A stretch of 63,798 nt of DNA, filler included, from Dirinaria sp. TL-2023a (taxonomy: Eukaryota): NCBI GenBank assembly GCA_051941275.1. It is 32 parts of 32 records of this genome, joined end to end, with 100 filler letters (N's around TTAATTAATTAA, not from the genome) between each part and the next. Parts side by side here need not be neighbours in the genome. Positions count along the whole stretch, not along the records: positions 14,181 to 16,094 come from JAVEBF010002472.1; 31 more parts are not named here. One strand, 5' to 3'. Of this stretch, positions 2,037 to 61,932 are shown piece by piece. The first letter of the stretch is position 1. The number at the start of each line of letters is the position of its first letter. Below the pieces are notes generated by a model. It did not search any database and was not told where the DNA came from. It saw only the letters and a program-made list of their open reading frames with translations. The translations under genes were made by a program, and so were the position numbers.

Positions 2037-4071
2037 GGGTTGGATGGAGCGTTTGTGGGGGATGTGTGTAGGGTTGTTGGGATGTATTGGCTGGTTTTGG
2101 AGGGGGGGTTGTGATTGATTAAAGAGCGAGAATTGCAGTCCATGGAGAAACCCCCGATCGAAGGAGAGAAAAACCAGTTGTCGAATTTGGGGTTTGAGTA
2201 GTAGTTTTTTTTTTTTTTTTCTTTTTTTTTTTTCGGTTTTTTGGGAATTTGAGCACAACATGTGTGAGAGAGAGTTGAAAGAGCGCAGAGTGAATGAATA
2301 TCTACCTACGTATTCATAAAGAAGATGTATTGTTAGTTGGATAGGTAGGACCCATTCTTTGCTAGGTTTTGTATGCATACATGGGATGGGATGGGATGGG
2401 ATGTTGGTTGAGTAAGGTAGGTAAGATCTTACCTTATTTAAGCAGGGTGGCGGTTTAGATTGCGTACTTTACTTTCTCCTGAATCAGGCTGGAAAAGGGT
2501 ATTTTTCTTGGGAATTTTTAACGATGGGGGAGAGAGCTACTAGTAGAAGGAGAGTGTAAGATTCAGTAGAAAAAATGCGGTTAGCAATTGGTCTGAGGTA
2601 CGAGTACTCAGAGGATACTAGGTAACTTGTGTTCTGGCTTGCTTGGAGTCATAAGTCCCAAAAAAAAAAAAAAAAAAAAAAAAAGGGGAAAAAACCCCTT
2701 GATGCGATTGGGGCGAAAGGCTGATGGTTTTAGGGAAGTATAAAAATTTCATGATTCTGAGAGATGACCTTGATGTTGCAGGGTTTTGTTTAGGGGCTAG
2801 GGGTTGCAGTTGGAGAGTTGGTTACGAAATTGACTGATTCACTATTCGAGAGGTGAAAGAGAATCTAAAACCATCCAGTCACAGCCTCTTGATAAGCCCA
2901 GATGCGAGGTTATCGGTACTGGCTATCTACTTCCGAGATGAAGCCAGTTATATTGCCCGAGTCATGGCCCAGTTGAAAGCCTGAATTGGTTTTTCCAGGA
3001 AAAAGTTGTGTTGGACGAGTGAGTGGCATTCGCTCGATTGATATATATGGCATCTGCAGCGCCATACTATGCGGGATCAGGATGGGAACATATAACAGAA
3101 TTGGCGCGCTCATTGATGTTCTCAAGATTGCTGACTGCATCCACGAGAGCCTGATTGACGTGGTAACCTAGCTAATAGTCGAATTGAATTCTGTTCATAC
3201 GTTTGCAGAGTCGAGGGCCCCAAAGCTGTGCGCTACTAAGATGGTTGGCCGTGTCGTCTGTATATCAAATGTTCAGTTCCGAGTGTAGCGTGATTACGAC
3301 CAAGTCAGACGTGGAAGCCTATCGCATCTATCTTTGATCCGTTTTTTTAAGTTGCTGCAGAAGATGATTTGAATGTGTGTTCATTCAGTTCTCAGAAGGT
3401 CAGGCCCAAATGTAGGCCACATTGGCGTTGTAGCCGAAAGTCACAATGCGAGCCTTTTGCAGTATCGGCAGGAAGTAGATCTTTTGGCTAGAACAGTGGT
3501 CCAAGTCCTGAATCTCGTGTCCAATGTCCATGTCCCGGTGTGACCGCATGCAAGCTATAAATCAAAATAATGCTGTGCTGCTCTCAGCGCAGGATTTTTC
3601 ATCAGACATATCCGAGGGTATGTATCTATTCAATGGTGGCATTAGCTTAGTTCCAGCAGTGCGTGTTTCTCGACTTTCTTAGAGTTGCAGTAGCAGTGTA
3701 AACACCAAAAATTAGTACCTCTTCGTTAGCTTCTCACTAGTGTGTCAGGCATCAAATTTAGGCGAGCCAAAAGCGCTAAGAGCCAGAAAGCGCTAACTTA
3801 AAAAACCTTAGCTCCCTCGGTCCTTAGGTTCCAGCGACTCGAGCGATCAAGCAGTTCTCAAGCTGCATTTCACGACAAGGCTGAGGATGTGTGGGTAGTT
3901 TCTGCTTCGTCCAATACCATCGTCCTCTCCGAATGAATCGCTATGAGCCCGGCAATATGCCGTCTGAGACCNNNNNNNNNNNNNNNNNNNNNNNNNNNNN
4001 NNNNNNNNNNNNNNNTTAATTAATTAANNNNNNNNNNNNNNNNNNNNNNNNNNNNNNNNNNNNNNNNNNNN

Positions 4072-8031: not shown

Positions 8032-8321
8032 NNNNNNNNNNNNNNNNNNNNNNNNNNNNNNNNNNNNNNNNNNNNTTAATTAATTAANNNNNNNNNNNNN
8101 NNNNNNNNNNNNNNNNNNNNNNNNNNNNNNNACATACTCTCGTCATCGTATTGAGAAAAAATTTCGACATTGATGTGATTTGAGAAATCAATTTTTAAAA
8201 TTATTTTTCGTGTGCGATCAAAATATTTAAATACAAAAATCGTAATGATTGTTTATTTCAATTGAGTGAACGTTTTTTGACATGTTTTATTTTAATTAAA
8301 TATGATATTTTTTGAGTCAAT

Positions 8322-8787
8322 TGTGAGGTGAAGGGCCTCGTTTAGAGGAGCTGCGTAGTAGAAGCGAAGCTGCAGACGAGGCACAGACACACCGCGTGAA
8401 CGCGGACGACGATTCTTGCTAATGAGTGAGAGGAACAAAGAAGCAGATTGCTTTTATTGCTAAGACTAATAACTGAGAAGATCAAAAGAAGTGAGCGACT
8501 CGTTTCTATCTTCAAATACGCTCGCTTTCTCTTTGTTATCTTGACTCCTAAATCCGACCTCGCGCTAGACTCTATCGAAACGCTTTAGACGAGATTGACG
8601 TGGCTCTAACTCGCGCTTCAATAGCAAGCGAGATCAGTTATCACGAGAACTACAGACGAGGTTGGCGTGACTCTAACTCGCGCTTCAATGACAAGCGAGA
8701 TCAGTTATCACGAGAACTATCTTGTCTTTCAAGCAGACGAGGCTTCGTGCGACGCTTCTGAGATCAAATTTCTCTAAAGTCGTCACA
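8322..8787 (-). mobile_element. 3' LTR (466 bp) of an LTR retrotransposon in minus orientation, with polypurine tract at 8788-8802
   Basis: TGTGA...TCACA inverted termini; the adjacent ACTATTTCTCTCTTC reads GAAGAGAGAAATAGT on the minus strand; internal 67-bp tandem duplication 8587-8719; remainder of the contig is CC/GG-depleted. Confidence 0.7.
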
Positions 8788-10151
8788 ACTATTTCTCTCT
8801 TCGAAGAATTCGACTCGAATTCTTATATTGACATATGATTAATCTCGCGCGATGAGATATCAGCGCTGATCATATAATTCAAAGCGAAATCGAATCACTT
8901 TGATTTTTTCGAGAGCGAGACAAAAGCGTTTTTGACGACACGAATAATTTGATGAAATTGAATTTCAAAAAATAATTTCTCTGATCAAAAGAGCAGTCTT
9001 TTATAAATCGATTAATTGATATTCACTCTGACTCAGATGATCTTGAAATTCTCGTTGATTGCAACTGCTTTGCGATGATCGTGTTATTGTTGATGCGACA
9101 ATAGAATAACAAGATGCTCATATAATCTTAGTAAACATAGATGACAATAACAAATGATAATTCTGAACTAAACAACAGTAAATAATGATCGTGTCAAAGA
9201 TAAATTTCATGAAGATGAGATATCAGATTGATATCGATAGTATGATACAATAGATTCATGGCGCGTTTTTTTTTGACGCGTTGAGCAGATGACAGTAAAT
9301 ATTATTTAAACGTTTCTCTGATCTGCGTCTTCTTTTTCTTCTTTTTCTTTTTTCTTTTTCACCTTCATGTATCAAGGCAAATCGTAAGTATATCCTCATC
9401 ATCTTCGCTGCTAGACTCTTGCTTCGTTGTTTACTATATCATTATCACTTCTTCATCGCACTGCGATTTAAACTCAGATGCAAATACTTTCTAAAGATCG
9501 TTGCCGAGACGCAGTGACCCTCAAATCGATGACAAGAACGATCGTTTCAACGCGTTTAAAAGCTGCTGAGTACCCTGACTAACATGACTGTTGAACTCGA
9601 TATAGATATCATTATGATAAGTGCTTATCATTTGCGAGACGCATCGTCGTCATGCGGTCTCTCTGACTGTTAAAAACATCGCTGACTGTGATACAGACTT
9701 CATCGCGCGCTCGTGACCCTCGCGAGCGTTTCGTCTCTGTCTTCGTCGTCGCGTTCTCGTCTTCTTCTCTCGTCTTCTCGTTCTCTCAACTTACGAGCGT
9801 CATGCTCGTCATTTCGACTAATTCTGCTTTCTCGTCGTCGAGAGCGATGAGTGTGACGATTCTCTCTCTCGATTTCTCGTCATCACGAATGTCGATGTTT
9901 GTCGCAGATAAATATTTAAAACACACTGAGAAGAAGTTGAGCTAACATGATGTTATAGCCGATGAGAAATCTCTCATCTAATGTCGACGATGTGTAACGA
10001 AATTTACGATCGATCGTCGTCATCGATGTGTTGCTTCGTCTGACGCTCGTCNNNNNNNNNNNNNNNNNNNNNNNNNNNNNNNNNNNNNNNNNNNNTTAAT
10101 TAATTAANNNNNNNNNNNNNNNNNNNNNNNNNNNNNNNNNNNNNNNNNNNN

Positions 10152-12166: not shown

Positions 12167-12330
12167 TTCTTTCGAATCACAAAAAAAGAACGAATTCGAA
12201 ATCGAAAAGATATTGAAACGAAGAGATCAAAAGTATCTTATTAAATGAAAAAAATGATTTACGAAGAATAACACGTGAGAATCATTTAGAAATCTTGCGA
12301 ATTGTCAAAGATTTCTGCGACAGTTTCGAC
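12167..12330 (+). mobile_element. Chromodomain at the integrase C-terminus of a Ty3/Gypsy chromovirus, inactivated
   Basis: NEFEIEKILKRRDQKYLIK*KK*FTKNNT*ESFRNLANCQRFLRQF matches the chromodomain pattern E-F-E-I-E-K-I-L...YLIKWKG...NTWEP..NL.NC; Trp codons are converted TGG->TGA. Confidence 0.8.
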
Positions 12331-12893
12331 AACAAGAGAATCGTTAATTCAGAGATTGATAGAGAGAGAAAGAGCGTCGAGTGCAAAGAGATCGTTCACG
12401 CTCGAGAGCGAGAACAGAGATCTTTTCATCTTCGCGAACTTTTTCAGAATTTTCATACGTTTCAATTTTTCGACATTTGACATTTCTTTATCAAACATTT
12501 TTTGTTTTTGACGACGAAGAAATCGTTTTTGTTGACGAAAACGCTTAAACTTAAATTTTTTATTACGAGCTAACTCGTTGACGATTTTTCACGCTGTCTC
12601 AGTCTTCAACTTCTCTCGTTTTAATTTTTTCATCGCACGATTCATCGCATCGAAACTAATCGACGATTTCACAGACTCGCATTTCTTGTCTGTACGAACA
12701 CATTTCTCACAACGCTTGAACAAGAAAAAAAGACGATATTTCTTTTGTTTGAAAGCACAACGACGACAGAAAATCATGTTAACGATTTCGTGTTTAAGAA
12801 TACGATTCGCAAAAATCTTATTGATACGAGATTTGACGAACGACATGAAGCATAATATTCTTTGAGATAAAAAACGAAAAAAGAAAAAAATGA

Positions 12894-13254
12894 TGTTACG
12901 ACTCTGAGACACGCGAGTGTCAAGAGATGATTATTAAACAAGAAATCACGTGTGAGTAACAAAAATAAATAATTCTTGACGCTGTCTATCGAAACTATCG
13001 TGACTAGACGAGTTAAACGAGTTAGACTGCTGTTTATCGTGTCTATCATAGCTAGAGATAAACAGAGTAAATCAGATAAACGATTGTCTATCATGACTAT
13101 CATAATCTATCACGATGTGTATATAAATTCGCGACGCGACGTTTTTACAGTATCGTGTTCAACATCTTTGCAATAACTATTTACTGCTCAGAGTAATTTG
13201 TATCTTGTCGTGATATTGCTATATCATCTCGAAGACATTCGTGATTTCTTGACA
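12894..13254 (+). mobile_element. 3' LTR of the chromovirus (approx. 361 bp)
   Basis: Purine tract AAAAAAGAAAAAAATGA immediately before TGTTACG; TATATAAA at ~13120; likely end ...TTCTTGACA; lies downstream of the chromodomain. Confidence 0.6.
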
Positions 13255-13458
13255 GATCTCTTCAACAGATCAAACCCTAGCACCTTTCCTGTTTAGGACC
13301 TAACTCTAGATATCAGATCGATAGGACGCAACAATGACGTGTGTTTTCTATGTTCTTATTGCCTTCATCTTCTAGACGTATATTTTAAGAGTTTTGTATG
13401 CGAACATAGAATTGTTGATTTCTAGTGCGAGTGCTTCGTCTTGAGTCATCAATTGATA

Positions 13459-13812
13459 TGTAACAGTGATATCTGATACATTGATATATATTGACCAATG
13501 CAGGCTAGCGCCGCTTGGCAGTCGGGGGTGCCCAGAGACAATTCTTCGGGGTCTGAAACATGGCTAGCGCCGTCTAGAAGTCAGCGTCGAAAGATTGAAT
13601 CTCGAGACTGACTAGAAGTCAGTGAGCAGTTGACGTTTATAGAGCATTGTGTTTACGAGCGCTCGTGATTCGTCAGCGCGAGACTCGTCATGATAAAACA
13701 ATGTTGACGCTCGCGATTAAGTATAAAGAATCACTCACTCTTTCGAAAAAAGATTCTTAATGATTAGTTCTAGCAGAAACTACAGTATCAAATAATCGTA
13801 TAATCTATTACA
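13459..13812. mobile_element. LTR of a further retroelement family, shared with the contig starting at 22229
   Basis: 13459-13516 is the reverse complement of 22229-22286 (two differences, both CC->TC/GG->GA); begins TGTAACA; the right boundary (..TTACA) is tentative. Confidence 0.5.
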
Positions 13813-14184
13813 CTGTCACGTCTTTCACATAAATACTACGCAGACGAGTAATCGACGCATACGATTTTACAATTTTAATCACTTCAATCTTTTTAAGAAA
13901 AAGACTCGAAGTGTAATAATGATGACGTTCTCGCGTGAAATGTCAAAATCTCAACAATCGAAAAACGATTTTAAAATCGTTCTGAATGATCGTTCGTTTC
14001 TCGTCGTCGCGATTTTATCAAATGACGCTGAGTCAAACAACATTTCGAATGTTTTACGAGATGAGTTCGCTCAACGCATTNNNNNNNNNNNNNNNNNNNN
14101 NNNNNNNNNNNNNNNNNNNNNNNNTTAATTAATTAANNNNNNNNNNNNNNNNNNNNNNNNNNNNNNNNNNNNNNNNNNNNTCAC

Positions 14185-14723
14185 TGTTAGAACCGGTGCA
14201 GAGCTCAGGTCAATGCAGGTATGATTAACTAAGGATATTATCACTAAGGAAGGAAAGAAGAAGAAGAGAAGCTAGATACAATGAGAGTCTCAGATATATA
14301 CGCGTGCGGGTGTCGCGTATCTCGATCGAGTTAGCGCATTATCCCTGAGAATCCTGAAAGATGTTGCCTCAGGTAGTATATCAGGTGCATGCTCGTAACA
14401 CTACCTCCCCCTTCAACAAGCCATTTCCTCATGACTTCATACAAGCCTTATTCATTGCGCATTGTAAGACGTTTGTGAAGGTCCAATTATCCTAGCAATC
14501 CAGTCCATAGTAAGGTGTTGTTGTAGATCCAATTCCTAGCGTTTGTATCATGTATGACGACTTCATTCTTCGCTAACTTTGTATTCTAATATTCTGACCA
14601 ATAGGTGTTGACTCTGCATCGATGTTGTGTGTCTTTTGTAGCAGATCTGCTGTGCGTGTTGACATTGTAGAAAAGTGCCTGTTGTAGCCGACTCGCTGTG
14701 TGTGTTTATTGTCTGCCGCGCAG
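14185..14723 (-). mobile_element. 3' end of an LTR element: 216-bp LTR (14185-14400), PPT (14401-14414) and non-coding internal sequence; left arm of an inverted repeat
   Basis: Reverse complement of 15244-15781; LTR reads TGTTAC...CTAACA and is preceded by GAAGGGGGAGGTAG on the minus strand. Confidence 0.85.
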
Positions 14724-15213
14724 TGTTACGACCCTGGAACACCTAAGTAGTAAGATAGGCACCAAGTCCCTTGACTTGGTTTAGTTAGTCTTTTGGCGCT
14801 GCCGGGACTTTTACCATTGAGAAACCTATCTAATCAAGATTGTGTCTTTGACATTAAACCAAGTCAACACGATCGCAAGATTCTGAGTTCGATTCTCAGC
14901 TCGAACGCTTGAAGGGTTTTCGAGTTTCGGCGAGAACTTGTGACTGAGAGCTTATCTAAGCTCGGGGCGATTACTGTTCTCTGTCAACAACACTTTAGAC
15001 TCTCTCTGAAATCTCGCGCGTCATGACTCGCTCTGATTAGTCTTGCTCATCGCGGAACGCGATTTCTCTAGAGAGAGAGGTAGTGTTACGACTCTGAAAC
15101 ACCTAAGTAGTAAGATAGGCACCAAGTCCCTTGACTTGTTTTAGTTAGTCTTTTGGCGCTGCCGGGACTTTTACCATTGGGAAACCTATCTAACCAAGGT
15201 TGGGTCTTTGACA
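14724..15213 (+). mobile_element. TRIM (terminal-repeat retrotransposon in miniature): 130-bp LTRs 14724-14853 and 15084-15213, 230-bp non-coding interior
   Basis: Direct repeats TGTTACGA...TTTGACA with 7 differences; PPT AGAGAGAGAGGTAG before the right LTR; post-LTR TAAACCAAGTCAA (14855-14867) is complementary to LTR 14771-14783. Confidence 0.85.
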
Positions 15214-15243
15214 TGCTCAATCGTCATAATCTTCTTCAAAGCC

Positions 15244-15781
15244 CTACGCGGCAGACAACAAACACACACAGCGAGTCGGCTACAACAGGCATTTTTCTAC
15301 AATGTCAACACTCACAGCAGGTCTGTTACAAAAGACACACAACATCGATGCAGAGTCAACATCTATTGATCAGAATATTAGGATACAAAGTTAGCGAAGA
15401 ATGAAGTCGTCATACATGATACAAACGCTAGGAATTGAATCTACAACAACATCTTACTATGAACTGAATTGCTAGAATAATTGGATCTTCACAAACGTCT
15501 TACAATGCGCAATGAATAAGGCTTGTATGAAGTCATGAGGACATGACTTGTTGAAGAAGAAGGTAGTGTTACGAGCATGCACCTGATATACTATCTGAGG
15601 CAACACCTCTCACAGTTCTCAGGGGTAATGCGCTAACTCGATCGAAATACGCGACACCCGCACGCGTATATATCTGAGACCCCATTGTATCTAGCTTCTC
15701 TTCTTCTTCTTTCCTTCCTTAGTGATAATATCCTTAGTTAACTATACCTGCATTGACCAGAGCTCTGCACCGGTTCTAACA
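15244..15781 (+). mobile_element. Second copy of the same LTR-element 3' end (LTR 15567-15781); right arm of the inverted repeat
   Basis: PPT GAAGAAGAAGGTAG then TGTTACGAGC...GGTTCTAACA; aligns to the reverse complement of 14185-14723. Confidence 0.85.
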
Positions 15782-18700
15782 GGAACGTCTACGCTACGCC
15801 GTCGAGAAACAGAGCACACTATCGAACACGCAGATGAGGGTCAGAAAACATCGATCGATGAACACAGCACTACAGCTCATAACGAAAAAAGTGCATACGA
15901 TATGAAGCGGAAACAAGAAACGTGTGATATCATTAATGAATCTGAACGTTTTCGAAGCATTCGATAACGTATCGCACGTCAGATTGCTTCACAATATGCG
16001 CAAACGAAAAATACCGACACGTTTGTTGACATGAGTGAAAAACTTTCTGAAAAAACGTCGAATCACACTGATTATTGACGACTACACGCAAGCGNNNNNN
16101 NNNNNNNNNNNNNNNNNNNNNNNNNNNNNNNNNNNNNNTTAATTAATTAANNNNNNNNNNNNNNNNNNNNNNNNNNNNNNNNNNNNNNNNNNNNCTTCTG
16201 GGGGCTTCAGGTTGCTGGTAAAAACTTTACCAAGATGTATTATTGCCGGAACCCAGGATCCCAAATACAGTAAACAAACCTCCTATCAACAAAAGGCCAG
16301 AACCGCGGGAGGGGTTCAGAACGTGCTTTCCAACCACTTAACCTGTCCATCGGGAGTGCGATATCATCATCATGCGTCGCGAATATCCGCCAATGGTACA
16401 TCCACCCAACGTATGCAGGGCCCGCTTCCGAAAAAGAAAAGGAGGACCTGCAACTTGACTGCAAGGCCTTGATCACTCGGTAACCAGCCGGAGGGCAGAG
16501 TGATCCCCCCCCCCACGGAACTCCTGTACGATAATCGAGATATATGTGGTGGAAAGTACCTATAGAGCTCCTGCACGAACAACGGGGAAAAAAGCCAACC
16601 GTCGTTGCAGGATCCGGAAACCCGACTGGTGTCGAATGCGATTCTTCGCTTCACCCCGTACCACTGTTACCTTCCCTCCGCACGTTTTAGCCACATACTG
16701 CGTACTGCCCGTACTGCTTACTCCTTCCAATGGATACGCGCAAGTGTATCACCATTTCTTCCTCTCCCCCACATCATCGAAATCAAATCTGCGTCTTTCT
16801 TAACTGGGAAGAAAAAGAACAAAGAAAAAGAAAAGAAAAGAAAAGAAAAGCAAAGCGCTCCCCACTGGCCAGTCCTAATGCAGTCCCTCCCGATGGATCT
16901 TATTTATCGCGAGTGATGAGAACGAGATAGTGGCGAAAAGCGCAAGCGCAAGCACAAGCACTGCTGGTGCTGGCCAGAGGAAATACCGAATGATCAATAG
17001 TAATGCGTATGGTACAGTAAATTTGAATTCCTCCGGTCGTCGTCCAGGGTACTCGTACTGGTTTTACTAGCGCCCGCGCTTTTTTCCACCCCAACCTTAA
17101 CCGCTGCGATGCTGCTCTGCAATGGAACATGCCTTCCTTTCCTACTACCGTCCTAACCGCTAAGGTCATGTACCTAAGTACATTACCTGAAAAGAACAGG
17201 GGTAGGTCAAGTGGATACTTAGGAAGAGAGCCAGAGAGCGAGATAGAGAGACTTAGGTAGTGCTAGACTGCTAGCAGCAGCAAAAGCAAATGAGAACTGA
17301 GCCGAGGCTTTTATGCTTTCTTCTTTTTCCCCCCTTTTCTCTTATTCTTCGAATTTAAACCCGCCAAAGTCTTTTTCGCAGAAGGATTCATATCTACCGT
17401 CCGTACATACATGTAAGATCTTACATTACGAAATTGCCATCCCCCATCTTCCCTACCTGCTTTGCCTCGGCTTCTTGCTTCTGAGAGGTACGAGTACACT
17501 ATGTATGTACATAGTAGGTGATGATACCATCCCTACCTTATTTGTCTTCCTCCTCTTGGCATCATCGATCAATGATTTCTCGTCCTTCATCTTCATCTTT
17601 TTATCTCCAAGGATGGGGAACAGCTAGCTACTTCTACACATACTTGTATACAAGACTTCGGTGATACTGTTTCTTTTCTTTTCTTTTTTTTTTTTGGAGG
17701 ACATTCAAGTGTCATCGCAACAGCATGGTATATCCCTCTGCGTGGTATATAGAGTCCCCCATACACCACCACCAAAAAAAAAAGGAGTAAAGAAACCTCC
17801 CCATCCGCACAATAAATCCCCAAAACACACGCGCACACACACTCTTTTTCTATTCCATTCCCTCCGAGTATGAGTGCTTTGATCTAGCCCTTCATCTATC
17901 CTCTTAATCCAGGTCTTCATTTCGCTCTTCTCATCTCTTTACTCTGTAACATATATATAATTCTTAACGTCCGTCTGTTTTTCTAATTCTCCTTCTTTCT
18001 TCCTTCCTTCCTTCCTTCCTTCCTTTCTTTTTTTTTTCCCCCCCCCAGAATGCATGTAAAGAATGGTATTAATTTTAGCTTTTAAAATGCAGGTAATTGC
18101 TTAAAAGNNNNNNNNNNNNNNNNNNNNNNNNNNNNNNNNNNNNNNNNNNNNTTAATTAATTAANNNNNNNNNNNNNNNNNNNNNNNNNNNNNNNNNNNNN
18201 NNNNNNNAAAAAAAAAAAAAAAAAAAAAAAACAGGTTCAACGAGTTGGCATCATGAAATGGCTTTACATTCGCCATTTGCCAGAATCACCGAAAGCTCAA
18301 TTCTTGATCTAAGCCAAAGCGATAATACGGATTTGGAGTGAATCGTTGGCCATTCTGGGTCTATCAACAGATATTGCCGGCAGACTCGAAGAAGAGGAGA
18401 AGAAAGTATCCACAGATATCCTTGCCACTACCAACCCAACTTGTCCATTGAATATCATAGAACCTGGTGCAGGCCTCAAATCTTCAGTTAGCCTCACAAG
18501 CTTTGGAGAAAGTGAAAGAATCTCAAATTGAAGCATCCTTATCGGATCGAGAAGATAACGATATTCTAATCAAGTACAGATAAACAGATACCAATGGAGC
18601 ATAGCAGGTCGAATCAAGGTTCCGTAGGGATATACACGCGCTGAGCACAGGTGGTCCTTCGGAAGAAAACTCAAAATTCTGTAAATCCCACAATATCCTT

Positions 18701-23016: not shown

Positions 23017-24138
23017 TGTTACCCGGGTCATTTTCTACAAGGTTTTTGTGTGTGGTGTTGAGTTTTGACCTGATCGGGGTTAGCGCATCCGAAGTGGTGG
23101 TCGGTCCGGCCGATCAGGGTCCAACGCCCACATATTCATATTATGCCTGGTTTCAGTTCATAGATTTCTTTTCTTCTTCATGCTTTGTGTATTTAGTTGA
23201 TAGTATCTGCATAGATCATACATTCTGCATCGATCCTGACATTACACAAAGCATTAAACCTCTTACCTCGTTTTGCAATTGTACGAGTTTCAAACAATCG
23301 CAACAACATCTGTGTCATCATCTACAATTGAACTGAACACTGTTGTTTACACATCTTACTCTTTGCTCTCGTTGTTTCGCGAGATAAAAAGAAAGAAATA
23401 CGATTTGATTGATGATATCAGCAATGATTAAAGACGTCAACGAGAAAGCACAGACGTAACAGACGCAAACACATGCTCAGACTCAGAAGCAGAAAAAAGA
23501 AAAGACGTCGACGCGACAACTGCTATCGAAGTTCTCAGATGAGTTGACAATGACGTCTCAGCAACGCATGACTTGATTATTGAAGAAGACAGAAAAACGA
23601 CGCGTATCGATGATGTCAGATACTACTCTCGCAGAGTCAGAAGAAGCAAACACTTCGAAGAATATACATACGATCTCACAGTTACAATTCTGAGTAAATA
23701 AACGCTCTGTTGAGATGCTAAACTCGATGAAAATGAGTCGTCTGAAACGCGATACTGCTCTTCATTGCGTCGACGATTGAAATGAGCTAGTTAAGAAACG
23801 AGACGAGATCAATGATATTGTCATCGAGACTCAAGATCGTCATAATCAGTTTCGAGAGAAAGTCAATAAATGATGAAACGATTGAAGTAAACTACAGATC
23901 AGACACGATCGTGCGAAGAACGAGAATGCTCGTCTGAATGAGAAAAATAATCAACTAAAAGTCGAAAACGAACGATTGAATGTAGAGCTCGCTGTCGCTC
24001 GTACTCAACGCGAAGTATCTCAGAGTGTCGATTTATTGAGAGTTGAAAACGAACGATTGACTGCGAAGCTCGCTGTCGCTCGCGCACAACGTGAAGTATC
24101 GCAGAACGAAGTATCTCATGTCTCTCAAATAAACAGTC
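23017..24138 (+). mobile_element. 5' LTR (23017-23241), self-priming PBS and hypermutated gag-like coiled-coil region of a Ty3/Gypsy element, apparently nested in another LTR starting at 22993
   Basis: TGTTACCC...CCTGACA; TACACAAAGCAT (23243-23254) is complementary to LTR 23180-23191; downstream CC/GG-free frame with the repeat VENERLxxxLAVARxQREVSQ. Confidence 0.7.
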
Positions 24139-27100
24139 NNNNNNNNNNNNNNNNNNNNNNNNNNNNNNNNNNNNNNNNNNNNTTAATTAATTAANNNNNN
24201 NNNNNNNNNNNNNNNNNNNNNNNNNNNNNNNNNNNNNNTTTGCTACGTGTGCCGCTTTGGCAGATATCGGAGGCTTTTCCGTGATTGCTACTCTATCTCA
24301 TGAAAAGGGTTGACCTGCTATGATACTTTCACGTGGCGCAGAAAGAGAGAGATAAATGCCACTTTACCCCCCGGTCAAGCCAGGTGTGCTTTGTAGCAAA
24401 GAGCCATGTGGGAAATAATATGGAAAAGCTTTGCATTCGAGATTGCATCGAGCACTCGTTGTGACCGGCAGGAAACTGTATGTACTGTATGTATACTGTA
24501 CAATATTGTGCCCGGCCTTATGAACCCTTCCTCGACGGTACCGATAATGCATCGAGAAAGAATAATCGGAATCTTTATTCCAAGCATTGGATCATAATTC
24601 TACAACCTTAATACCCCAGCCAGCGATGGCTATTGGATTATTGACCCCCACATCATCGAATCTTGACAAGCAGCCTCAGTAATCCGTGCCCAGAGCTACA
24701 TTCTCTACCTAGCTTTTTCGAAAATCTATCGCACGTAGAAGATATTTTTGTAGAGCATATAAGGTAAGTATTACAGCCTAGCCTTGAAAAAAAGTACATT
24801 CAATAGAATCTTGAGCCACTGACAAATATTTTCCTTCCCTTGCGTCTCACTACTATCAACGACCGCGATTCGACTCCAAACATCTCTGTTTCTATATTCG
24901 TATTAAGCTTCTACGAATCTTATCTTCCGACACCGACCGTAGAATGATTTTTTATGGAGCGTTCGTACTGACTTTTCACACACTCGAGCTAGCCTTCATG
25001 GATATAGGCCGAGCTAACCACGCCAAGGACCCTCTCCCGAGATCTGTCTTCAACCTCGATACTCCTCTTCGCCACTGGCATTCCTTACAGATATTTTATA
25101 AAAAAAAAAAAAAAAAAGAGGGGGGGGTGTTGCGCTCCTACCATCGCAACAGTAGATATATTTTTCAGCATCTATATCGAGCGAAACCATCCTCTTCGAA
25201 ATCTCCCGAAATTCAAGAATACACATAGAGCTACTACTCAGAAGAATCTTCGATTACTGACCATGGCTGCTATTGATATCTTAGCTTGTTTTAGACTCTA
25301 ATGAGTTCGACGCACGAGGAGGCTGGGTAGTCGTGCAAAAGATTTTCTCCTGTTCTAAGAGTTGGAGGACTCAACTGTAGCAACAAGATGTTCTGTATAT
25401 GAGGCTATCGATCTACCTAGCGCAGCTGCTTCAAACCCCGTGGCAGCAGTAATGATCTTCGAGGCTGAACCTTTTTGCGAAGGATACACGATACTTATTG
25501 ACCAAGATTCAGAAGTTAAGAAGCGAAAGCCTAAATGCACTCTAATCTAGCATAGGGTTTAAGCCATCTATAGTCCCCCTATCCGCATCCATCCTCAGTC
25601 CCACTGTCTCGGGCCATTTTCCAGTCTATCTCTCAACATCCATTGAAAGAAGAGGAAAGAAGAAGAAAAAAACTTTTTTTTTACACATTTTTCATTCACG
25701 ACAATCGCCCAAGCGACTCCCATCGCACGTTCAGTCCTCTTTTTAATACAAGTCCAGAAGCAAAGCAAATTTCGAAGAGCACTTGCCGACCAAGGCTGAG
25801 CTGAAAATAAAAGCGCAACCTCATTCTCAAGGACTTAATTAAGAAGTCATAGATAAAAAGGGAGAGATAAAAAAGATAAAGCGAGAGGGGTAATATGTTG
25901 AGCAGTGACGAGTATTACAGAGCGAAAGAGAGAAATCGATCTTCAAGGTATTGGATTCTTGATATTTTTTATCTTGTTAAGATTTGATATGGAGAAGGCT
26001 GACAATAAATGTCCCTAAACCCTGTGATAAATGAACAACTTGATCCTTCTCCCCACTTTCCCCTCTTCCTTTCCCTCTCTTCAGTCTTCCATTCAATCGC
26101 AATCTGATTGGAAGGGGGGAAAAAAAAGCAAGTTAAAAATCAACCNNNNNNNNNNNNNNNNNNNNNNNNNNNNNNNNNNNNNNNNNNNNTTAATTAATTA
26201 ANNNNNNNNNNNNNNNNNNNNNNNNNNNNNNNNNNNNNNNNNNNNCATCAATATATCAAGGTTAAAATCCATTGCTATGCGCCTCGGAATCGCAAGGCGC
26301 ACTTTCTCTGGGGAAGCACGAGCGATAAGTTGGGTCCCCAGTCCAATCATTCTTCCACGTATAAGCCTGCCCACTGGGGGCCTTCCTTATGCGGTATCGT
26401 ATCCATCGAATCATATTTCAATGGCAATAATTCATATGTTGAGTGTTTTCAAAAGTGCCTGTGGATTCCAGAATCACGAACATTTCACCATGACCCTTTG
26501 TAGTTCCAGTCACTGTAAAAGTTTCTAGGCGCGCTAGGCGCAGCAGTAGCCGCCGCCTACACCCAAAGTTTACACCCGCAATGCTTAAGTTTCACTTACA
26601 TTCCTCCCTCTTCCTAAGTATATGTACCGTATATTCTCCGATTGTGACCGCCTTCCAAAGCTTTCAGCTTTCGACTTCCCCCTTCTCTGCTTCGAAGTCT
26701 TTCTACATCTACTTTACGTTTTATCACCGTGCCTGCCTTCAAGTATACCAGGAAGCTCGTACCTACTCAACCTAACCCTTTCCATAGTATCCGAAGATGC
26801 TGCCCGCCTTTGAAGAAATCTTTGAATTACTTGAGCTTGTACAGAGCCTTTCTTCCCTCTTTCACTTATCTGACTACAAGAGAAAAGCCTATTCCTTCCT
26901 AAATTTCTTTCATAACTGAAAAGTAGTAGAGCTCTACCGGCTGAGGAGACATGCTCGTCCGGCCTTGAAGCGAAGAGCTACTCCCTAATCTTTTTCCCAA
27001 GGACATTAGGATTGAGTCATCTGTCTCCGAGGTGTTCGAAAGCGAATAGGCGGTAACCCACCATCATCTTCAAAGCTCCTCAGTCACTAATCTGGAGTAT

Positions 27101-61252: not shown

Positions 61253-61932
61253 GCTTTTTGCTTCCAGGTATTAGGTACAGGAGTCAGCCAGCCTCGAGCA
61301 AAATACAGAAGTCTAGGGACTGCCTCATTTGGGACAGGAACAGCATGTCATAGGGATCGTAAGGTGAGAGATGAGGAAACGTTTCCTTGAATAGCGAAGC
61401 CTGAAGGTCTGAGGCGTCCGTACGGGCGGCCGGGACCGAAAGCCGGCGCTAGTGAACAGCTTCCTCTTGACGCGCATGGGAGGCTGCCTCGAGCTTGCTC
61501 GAAATATACAACTTCTTTCTCCTACTACCTTACGTTCCAAGGCGTTTTCAAGCAACTGAATTGACTGCCGAAGTGTATATCTTGTGCTGAATGTGCTGAC
61601 TCCCTGCACTGCCAAAACCGTCAATCACCCACTATGGCCGACCGTTACAATTATTCACTTACAACCTTCTCGCCCAGGTATGCCATATTCTGAATCTCCA
61701 AAGATGGAGCCAAGGACTAATTGTACCAAGTGGTAAACTAGGACAAATAGGTTCGCACTCCTCCGCCCTAGCCATTACTAAACAACTTATTGAAAAAAAT
61801 CAACCCAGAATATGCCTTAAACGCTGTAAACCNNNNNNNNNNNNNNNNNNNNNNNNNNNNNNNNNNNNNNNNNNNNTTAATTAATTAANNNNNNNNNNNN
61901 NNNNNNNNNNNNNNNNNNNNNNNNNNNNNNNN

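Follow-up and report, generated by a model that had tools for sequence, protein, structure and literature searches.

A window of 63,798 nucleotides (nt) from the genome assembly of Dirinaria sp. TL-2023a (GCA_051941275.1) bears the footprint of a C-to-T mutator directed at CpC, that is at CC on one strand and GG on the other. A preliminary description of this DNA had proposed such a CpC-specific mutator, mainly from the paired repeat copies of a transposon-like element located in the eighth contig of the window (contig 8, 14181-16094), which is the main site considered here. The proposal is supported by a roughly tenfold context bias in the repeat pairs, by long blocks deprived of CC and GG and by the codons of a gene relic, and there is very little doubt that the CpC-targeted signature itself is real. 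By analogy with other fungi, it is rather probable that it results from a process of the repeat-induced point mutation (RIP) type, where CpC would replace CpA as the preferred target. RIP is the textbook genome defence of fungi, and its preference for CpA serves both its detection and the current thinking on its chemistry. RIP itself and a formal CpC class of RIP are already known; judging from the sequence, what appears to be new is a RIP-like hypermutation that prefers CpC.

The window consists of 32 unplaced contigs of 1,866-1,936 nt each, sorted by size and joined by 100-nt linkers (N44 + TTAATTAATTAA + N44, at 1937-2036, 3972-4071 and so on up to 61833-61932). Since it is a concatenation of unplaced contigs, adjacent contigs are unrelated and any feature spanning a linker is an artefact.

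Differences between repeat copies

The four repeat pairs considered in the preliminary description were all recovered by alignment where it had placed them. Each transition was oriented to the strand that bears the C, and the contexts of changed Cs were counted against those of unchanged Cs. Two of these pairs belong to contig 8. The direct repeats of the element (14724-14854 and 15084-15214) differ by five transitions, all located at CpC and identical to those reported initially (CCC/CTC, GGA/GAA, GGG/GAG, ACC/ATC and GGT/GAT), plus two G/T transversions that had been omitted. The two arms of the surrounding inverted repeat (aligned over 14184-14723 and 15244-15782) differ by 28 transitions, four transversions and one indel column. 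CpC accounts for 19 of the 28 transitions, in agreement with the claim that most differences between the arms are of the CC/GG type, and for 16 out of 22 if only sites with identical neighbours in both arms are retained. The same pattern had been claimed for two shorter pairs and was found in both. Three of the five transitions between the 66-67-nt units of a tandem pair (8587-8719, plus strand) are at CpC, as are both transitions in a 58-nt match between contig 7 (13459-13516, plus strand) and the start of contig 12 (22229-22286, minus strand).

Once pooled, the four pairs differ by 40 transitions, six transversions and one indel column, and therefore overwhelmingly by C:G to T:A transitions, as expected from copies that underwent RIP. 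CpC is the context of 29 of the 40 transitions but of only 34 of the 273 unchanged Cs (Fisher odds ratio 18.5, p 6.4e-15), the remaining unchanged Cs being found in 92 CpA, 60 CpG and 87 CpT. Expressed as the share of sites that changed, this gives 46% for CpC (29/63), 7% for CpT, 4% for CpA (4/96) and 0% for CpG (0/60). The context bias persists when the direction is reversed, i.e., when T to C changes at TpC are considered (p 2e-11). The 5' neighbour of the C has no significant effect on change in the four pairs. At the +2 position, CCG lags behind (0/8 changed vs 11/16 for CCA, 14/32 for CCT and 3/7 for CCC; A or T vs C or G, p 0.04). A dominant 3' neighbour and a minor third base, which are typical of RIP, are thus observed in the pairs, and the same holds for the saturated blocks described below.

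Both strands and both copies have been mutated. Among the differences between the arms, 16 are C/T and 12 are G/A sites, and the T/A state is found 19 times in the right arm and nine times in the left one.

Two tandem arrays, whose units were scored against their majority consensus, do not show any CpC excess. Changes of the T>C/A>G and C>T/G>A types number 17 and 12, respectively, in the 96-nt array of contig 28 (six units) and 54 and 37 in the array of about 220 nt of contig 6 (four units). The CpC bias is therefore not a general property of repeat comparisons in this genome. The bias is nonetheless visible, above a noisy background, in one pair of contig 6 (11 CpC changed and two kept, p 0.002). 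The array of contig 28 (55312-55919), made of about six units that are 78-85% alike, overlaps a 187-codon open reading frame (ORF) on the minus strand; its divergence is ordinary and symmetric.

Blocks without CC or GG and a gene relic

The depletion of CC and GG was calculated for each contig as a strand-symmetric ratio of observed to expected counts, 26 contigs being used as controls. This ratio falls to 0.03 in contig 4, 0.18 in contig 7, 0.20 in contig 5, 0.40 in contig 12 and 0.63 in contig 8. Contig 6 stands at 0.78, and the remaining 26 contigs, some of which bear genes, range over 0.81-1.20. In the depleted contigs, the same ratio rises up to 1.5-1.6 for TC/GA and to 1.3-2.0 for CG.

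The missing dinucleotides are concentrated in blocks that appear saturated. The largest one, in contig 4 (6104-8031, 1928 nt), retains one CC and two GG for 109.2 expected (Poisson p 8e-43). Contig 7 harbours two blocks entirely devoid of CC and GG, one of 1108 nt (12167-13274, 64.5 expected) that holds the gene relic and another of 510 nt (13571-14080). The second half of contig 12 includes a block of 872 nt (23267-24138) with no CC or GG for 71.9 expected, separated by a sharp border from the normal first half of the contig; the borders are also sharp in contig 7. Contig 5 carries three CC/GG-free runs, the longest at 8742-9260 and the others at 8132-8327 and 9719-9959. Poisson probabilities range from 1e-28 to 1e-43 for the three largest blocks. 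Over the 63.8-kb window, ten of the 11 runs of at least 150 nt without CC or GG are located in affected contigs, and the longest run found elsewhere is 184 nt. At saturation, all four CCN triplets are reduced to 0.14-0.30 and TCG/CGA reach 2.57, whereas the GC content of the four largest blocks falls only to 0.32-0.41.

The two blocks of contig 7 are separated by an island (13275-13570) whose CC/GG content is normal (22 in 296 nt) and that includes the 58-nt match at 13459-13516, which starts with TGTAACAG. This island looks like a younger insertion into older mutated DNA and is possibly the end of a long terminal repeat (LTR).

The standard RIP thresholds, as quoted in PMC3897900, are a TpA/ApT above 0.89 and a (CpA+TpG)/(ApC+GpT) below 1.03. 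They are never reached jointly in the blocks, where the first index is 0.56-0.71, the second is 0.83-1.13 and their difference is negative everywhere; the preference for CpA that characterizes RIP is not found. The prediction that indices based on TpA/ApT would miss a CpC pattern is thus borne out. According to its description, RIPCAL recognizes CpC>TpC (GpG>GpA) as one of four formal classes of RIP, with (CpC+GpG)/(TpC+GpA) as its index (PMC2621366). This index of the RIPCAL/deRIP scheme separates affected DNA from controls. Values of 0-0.08 are obtained for contig 4 (0.009), for contig 5 and for the saturated blocks of contig 7 (two) and contig 12 (one), and 0.12 for the flank of the contig 8 element, compared with 0.47-1.35 (median 0.81) in the 26 control contigs.

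In order to open frames in the saturated blocks, TGA was read as X. This reveals a frame of 214 codons in contig 7 (12286-12930, minus strand), which is the relic of a member of a gene family. Searching 1.84 billion representatives with HMMER retrieved 67 relatives and a word-based search added P0121, leading to 68 proteins. These relatives are ENA, JGI, Logan and NCBI records that may belong either to this genome or to other ones. The sole named one is a hypothetical protein of Clathrospora elynae, and the Atlas matches are Ascomycota clusters only. Members of this family have about 160-220 amino acids; their N-terminus is rich in Cys (C..C...C..C......C) and precedes a charged stretch resembling a coiled coil. 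The family has no Pfam domain, and a longer or fused form was not retrieved either, this second negative being weak evidence.

Proline and glycine together represent at least 4.5% of the residues in 17 of the 68 proteins, at most 1.5% in 41 and an intermediate share in ten; as the query was a relic, the search favours look-alike relics and 41/68 should not be read as a frequency. Seven columns of the alignment are mostly occupied by Gly (five), Pro (one) or Trp (one) in the intact set, and the relic has E, E, D, E, D, S and a stop at these positions. The corresponding codons are GAA, GAG, GAC, GAA and GAC for Gly, TCT for Pro and TGA for Trp, each of them a single GG>GA or CC>TC step away from GGN, CCN or TGG. 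In the same way, the 105 cells of the Gly columns in the 41 depleted relatives contain D (26), N (21), S (14), E (13) and K (9), Gly being kept in three, while the 26 cells of their Pro column include S (12), F (9) and L (2). These relatives have kept Phe in 82 of 85 cells and Gln, encoded by CAR, in 50 of 51; this last retention indicates that CpA is not a target. The Pro/Gly-poor relatives look like hypermutated copies annotated as genes in public assemblies, and the 41 records concerned (ENA, JGI, Logan) may indicate that this footprint is also abundant outside the window.

The direction of the changes is C>T, because CC/GG are lost while TC/GA are gained and because the codons of the relic are one step from the residues of its intact relatives.

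Other frames were also opened by reading through TGA. Contig 12 contains a frame of 349 codons (23141-24190, minus strand) whose only stops are 16 TGA, and a frame of 226 codons (23460-24137, plus strand) with six TGA. The latter codes for a repetitive sequence resembling a coiled coil, and no Pfam family was matched by either frame. Among 24 read-through ORFs, no credible Pfam family was recognized, the only three matches (bZIP/TPR) being all below the cut-off. In metagenome contigs, no relative of a 508-amino-acid monooxygenase-like ORF was confirmed, tblastn having rejected all 37 pattern matches, and a degenerate 40-nt pattern derived from the direct repeat of contig 8 retrieved no stretch.

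The element of contig 8

The centre of the contig 8 element is made of two direct repeats of about 131-133 nt (TGTTACG...TTTGACA), 95% identical and 229 nt apart, the longer limits being 14722-14854 and 15082-15214. The first one (14724-14854, plus strand, 131 nt), previously taken as the 5' LTR of a terminal-repeat retrotransposon in miniature (TRIM), has 15 CC+GG vs 14 TC+GA. The second one (15084-15214, plus strand) has 17 vs 12. They frame a single-copy interior of 229 nt (14855-15083, plus strand), rich in TCG/CGA, with nine CC+GG (25.9 expected) and 50 TC+GA. This centre is enclosed by the two arms of an inverted repeat, which are 94% identical. The left arm (14185-14723, minus strand, 540 nt) contains 36 CC+GG vs 72 TC+GA and bears the T/A state at nine of the 28 transition sites, compared with 28 vs 73 and 19 of 28 for the right arm (15244-15781, plus strand).

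The label of TRIM fits only in part. The shape agrees with it, with two short TG...CA direct repeats around a short non-coding interior, as does the purine run AGAGAGAGAGGTAG that lies just upstream of the 3' direct repeat, ending at 15083, where a polypurine tract is expected. By contrast, a target-site duplication is lacking, the outer 5 nt of the element formed by the 131-nt repeats being CGCAG on one side and TGCTC on the other. This assignment, drawn from the sequence, is therefore plausible but unproven.

At its outward end, each arm carries an LTR-like piece of 215 nt (TGTTACGAG...GGTTCTAACA) that follows a purine run. On the left, it extends over 14185-14399 and shows its TG..CA ends and adjoining purine run when read on the minus strand; on the right, it occupies 15567-15781 (plus strand), with the purine run AAGAAGAAGG just before it. 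The direct repeats open with the same TGTTACGA..CACCT as these LTR-like ends and likewise follow a purine run. Given this shared start and the purine runs, all four pieces look like LTRs of related retroelements. A junction consisting of a purine run, GGTAG and then TGTTACGA occurs at 14393-14412, 15072-15091 and 15555-15575, i.e., on the inner edge of three LTR-like pieces from two repeat families. From its recurrence, these retroelements seem to be related and to have conserved their polypurine tract and the start of their LTRs. The left arm starts 4 nt inside the edge of contig 8, as would be expected if this LTR recurs elsewhere in the genome.

Since the element has terminal repeats that differ from each other, the changes post-date its integration. 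The various parts of contig 8 are unequally worn. The flank of the element (15782-16094) is an older, heavily mutated layer, with six CC+GG (28.3 expected, Poisson p 5e-7) for 49 TC+GA. The gradient that runs from this flank (6/49) through the interior (9/50) and the arms (36/72 and 28/73) to the direct repeats (15/14 and 17/12) indicates that the DNA in which the element lies is older and nearly saturated. CC and GG are scarcer in the interior than in the direct repeats (9/50 vs 32/26 pooled, Fisher p 6.5e-6). This contrast could reflect an ancestral composition, an older origin of the interior or a counterpart of the Dim2/Dim5 pathway of Neurospora, which mutates the single-copy DNA located between repeats according to the account in PMC12543289.

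Mechanism, alternatives and known mutators

In the mechanism that we favour, a mutator acts on integrated double-stranded DNA and changes C to T on either strand; the CpC context, the direction, the action on both strands and after integration, and the confinement to blocks are visible in the window itself. Its targets are transposon-like repeats and the relic of a many-membered gene family, with its 67 database relatives. The 5' C of CpC is changed about ten times more often than other Cs, and CpG is left until CC is exhausted. At saturation, nearly all CC and GG are erased from sharp-edged blocks, while the composition of neighbouring genes seems to stay normal. Each copy of an element is mutated independently, so that paired copies differ mainly at CC/GG. 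We infer that such a process would serve in defence, would be triggered by homology or heterochromatin during the sexual cycle and would depend on a cytosine-methyltransferase-like enzyme of the RID or DIM-2 type, whose 3'-neighbour preference would be C instead of A. No methyltransferase match was found among the ORFs scanned in the window, which also lacks detectable tRNA genes and Rfam families.

A RIP-type process is proposed because the host belongs to the Pezizomycotina, because the shape of the specificity is that of Neurospora, because the borders are sharp and because genes appear to be spared. The best named relatives of a PRELI-domain protein encoded by contig 29 are from Heterodermia, Lignoscripta and Trapelia, which are lichen-forming Lecanoromycetes (59-67% identity); the assembly is therefore that of a lichen-type ascomycete. 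As in the RIP of Neurospora and other Pezizomycotina, in which the repeats are the domain of the RID pathway, C:G to T:A changes affect repeats and transposon DNA, on both copies and both strands. The work on Neurospora reported in 10.1101/344036 describes a dominant 3' neighbour, a minor third base and a preferred context that leads by about an order of magnitude; the specificity observed here has the same form, with a roughly tenfold lead of one context. Furthermore, the mutated single-copy interior between direct repeats recalls the Dim2/Dim5 branch (PMC12543289). The chosen context, however, is the opposite one. In the comparison given in PMC5496416, contexts rank as CpA>CpT>CpG>CpC in N. 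crassa and as CpA~CpG, then CpT>CpC, in Trichoderma reesei, so that the context preferred here is the least preferred in both of these species, the two for which crossing data exist. Unlike in Neurospora, CpA is left untouched, the products are TC/GA instead of TA and the loss of GC content is limited.

Several observations weigh against a RIP-type process. The four pairs show 47 differences in all, and besides the CpC transitions these include 18 others, namely 11 transitions in different contexts, six transversions and one indel. The arms have accumulated about 2.4% of other divergence, and a slow process that is about 25 times faster at CpC fits these numbers equally well. Along the right arm, C/T and G/A changes interleave without any grouping by strand. 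The single-copy interior is poorer in CC/GG than the repeats, an outcome not expected from a RIP strictly confined to repeats. No second copy of any saturated block occurs in the window. Lastly, pairs located in DNA where CC is exhausted do not follow the rule. In contig 4, such pairs differ by 11 transitions, five at CpA, four at CpT, two at CpG and none at CpC; in a 65-nt pair from the CC-free block of contig 12 (1732-1796 and 1813-1877 of the contig; 23960-24105), six of the seven transitions are at CpG. CpG is therefore spared only while CC remains. The CpG changes of contig 12 may reveal a second-tier target or an ordinary decay of CpG, though the observed/expected CpG of such blocks is still high.

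Some of these observations are shared by the main rival explanation, a slow decay linked to methylation. It supposes that repeats and heterochromatin undergo a CpC-preferring methylation of the Dim2 type, followed by the change of C or methylated C to T during ordinary growth, without any premeiotic burst or homology check. There is a precedent for such a decay, since a functional dim2 in Zymoseptoria tritici is reported to increase C>T changes during mitosis in regions carrying 5-methylcytosine, a process that its authors termed a mitotic version of RIP (PMC8016269). The non-CpC divergence of the arms implies that the elapsed time was not short, the two strand types are interleaved and the limits of the blocks could equally mark heterochromatin domains. 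Nevertheless, a uniform decay should not leave the terminal repeats near normal (15/14 and 17/12) next to an interior at 9/50, and the context described in Z. tritici is CpA (PMC8016269). We thus regard mitotic decay as unlikely, albeit worth serious consideration. The mutator of Z. tritici resembles the one inferred here in that C>T changes are limited to regions of ascomycete transposon DNA and that CpG is spared, although it is methylated there. It differs in that the CpA changes were seen directly in mutation-accumulation lines, whereas the CpC changes are known from their footprint alone (PMC8016269).

A very improbable explanation is that a single-strand cytosine deaminase, AID/APOBEC-like or other, edited transposon DNA exposed during transcription, replication or reverse transcription. 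Animal enzymes of the AID/APOBEC type cause C>T hypermutation of mobile elements, and several of the affected pieces look derived from retroelements. However, the terminal repeats of one integrated element differ, which places the changes after integration, a gene relic that is not a retroelement is affected too, and both strands are about equally mutated, contig 4 for instance retaining one CC and two GG. In addition, it is the base 3' of the C that decides, as it does for methyltransferase-type enzymes and RIP, while APOBEC enzymes take their context from the 5' neighbour. More specifically, GG>AG editing of the APOBEC3G type was rejected, as it is the second G of GG that changes and not the first. 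Editing of hairpin RNA by ADAR, for which a 5' G is the least favoured neighbour, was rejected because the direction is C>T.

That no targeted process occurred, and that chance, ordinary divergence, ultraviolet (UV) light, foreign DNA or sequencing and assembly errors produced the footprint, is scarcely credible: although bins of short unplaced contigs gather artefacts and contaminants, no gene on the affected contigs links them to the fungus and lichens are exposed to UV, the probabilities obtained for pairs (6e-15) and blocks (1e-28 to 1e-43) are extremely low, neither the control contigs nor the old tandem arrays deviate from normal, UV damage to dipyrimidines should also deplete TC, which is enriched, errors do not create assembled kilobases without CC or GG, and arms that differ by 6% are neither a palindromic assembly chimera nor one sequence read twice.

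Contexts of hypermutation also vary between other fungal lineages. In Microbotryum and in other members of the Pucciniomycotina, transposon hypermutation favours TpCpG, and in Aspergillus RIP-like patterns are biased towards CpG. The pattern of Dirinaria is similar in being a hypermutation with its own context and differs from these CpG-centred patterns by the sparing of CpG (0/60). In the RIPCAL account (PMC2621366) and in the studies considered here that apply it, the CpC class serves for bookkeeping and never exceeds a minor share, and none of them describes a CpC-dominant species. In lichen fungi, ordinary RIP was reported from GC content, RIPper or classical indices for Cladonia rangiformis (PMC12542154), Xanthoria (10.1101/2025.11.25.690456) and Endocarpon (PMC3897900). 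According to a survey published in 2025, which applied a pattern-agnostic k-mer approach to 1,239 fungal genomes, RIP-like defences share a preference for CpA; the strong cases in its main account all belong to the Dothideo-, Eurotio-, Sordario- or Leotiomycetes, with no Lecanoromycetes named among them, and, supplementary tables aside, it does not contain the term "CpC" (PMC12543289). Likewise, no report of a CpC-dominant RIP was found among the matches listed for the full-text literature, a set that does not cover the survey of RIP contexts in ascomycetes published by Clutterbuck in 2011.

With somewhat less than an even chance, the preference of RIP could have evolved here to its opposite extreme, an enzyme of the RID or DIM-2 type from a lichen-forming lineage having been retuned from CpA to CpC with a precise and complete erasure of CC and GG. 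If this is true, the context preference would be a tunable property of the enzyme, and this lineage would provide a natural variant for finding the reader of the 3' neighbour in RID/DIM-2-type proteins. It would also explain how repeats with a GC content of 32-41% nonetheless lose their Pro, Gly and Trp codons. Surveys relying on TpA/ApT indices or AT-rich k-mers would miss RIP in such lineages, and RIP would be under-counted wherever its product is TC/GA instead of TA. In practice, regions like those of this window are revealed by the index (CpC+GpG)/(TpC+GpA) or, more simply, by runs without CC or GG.

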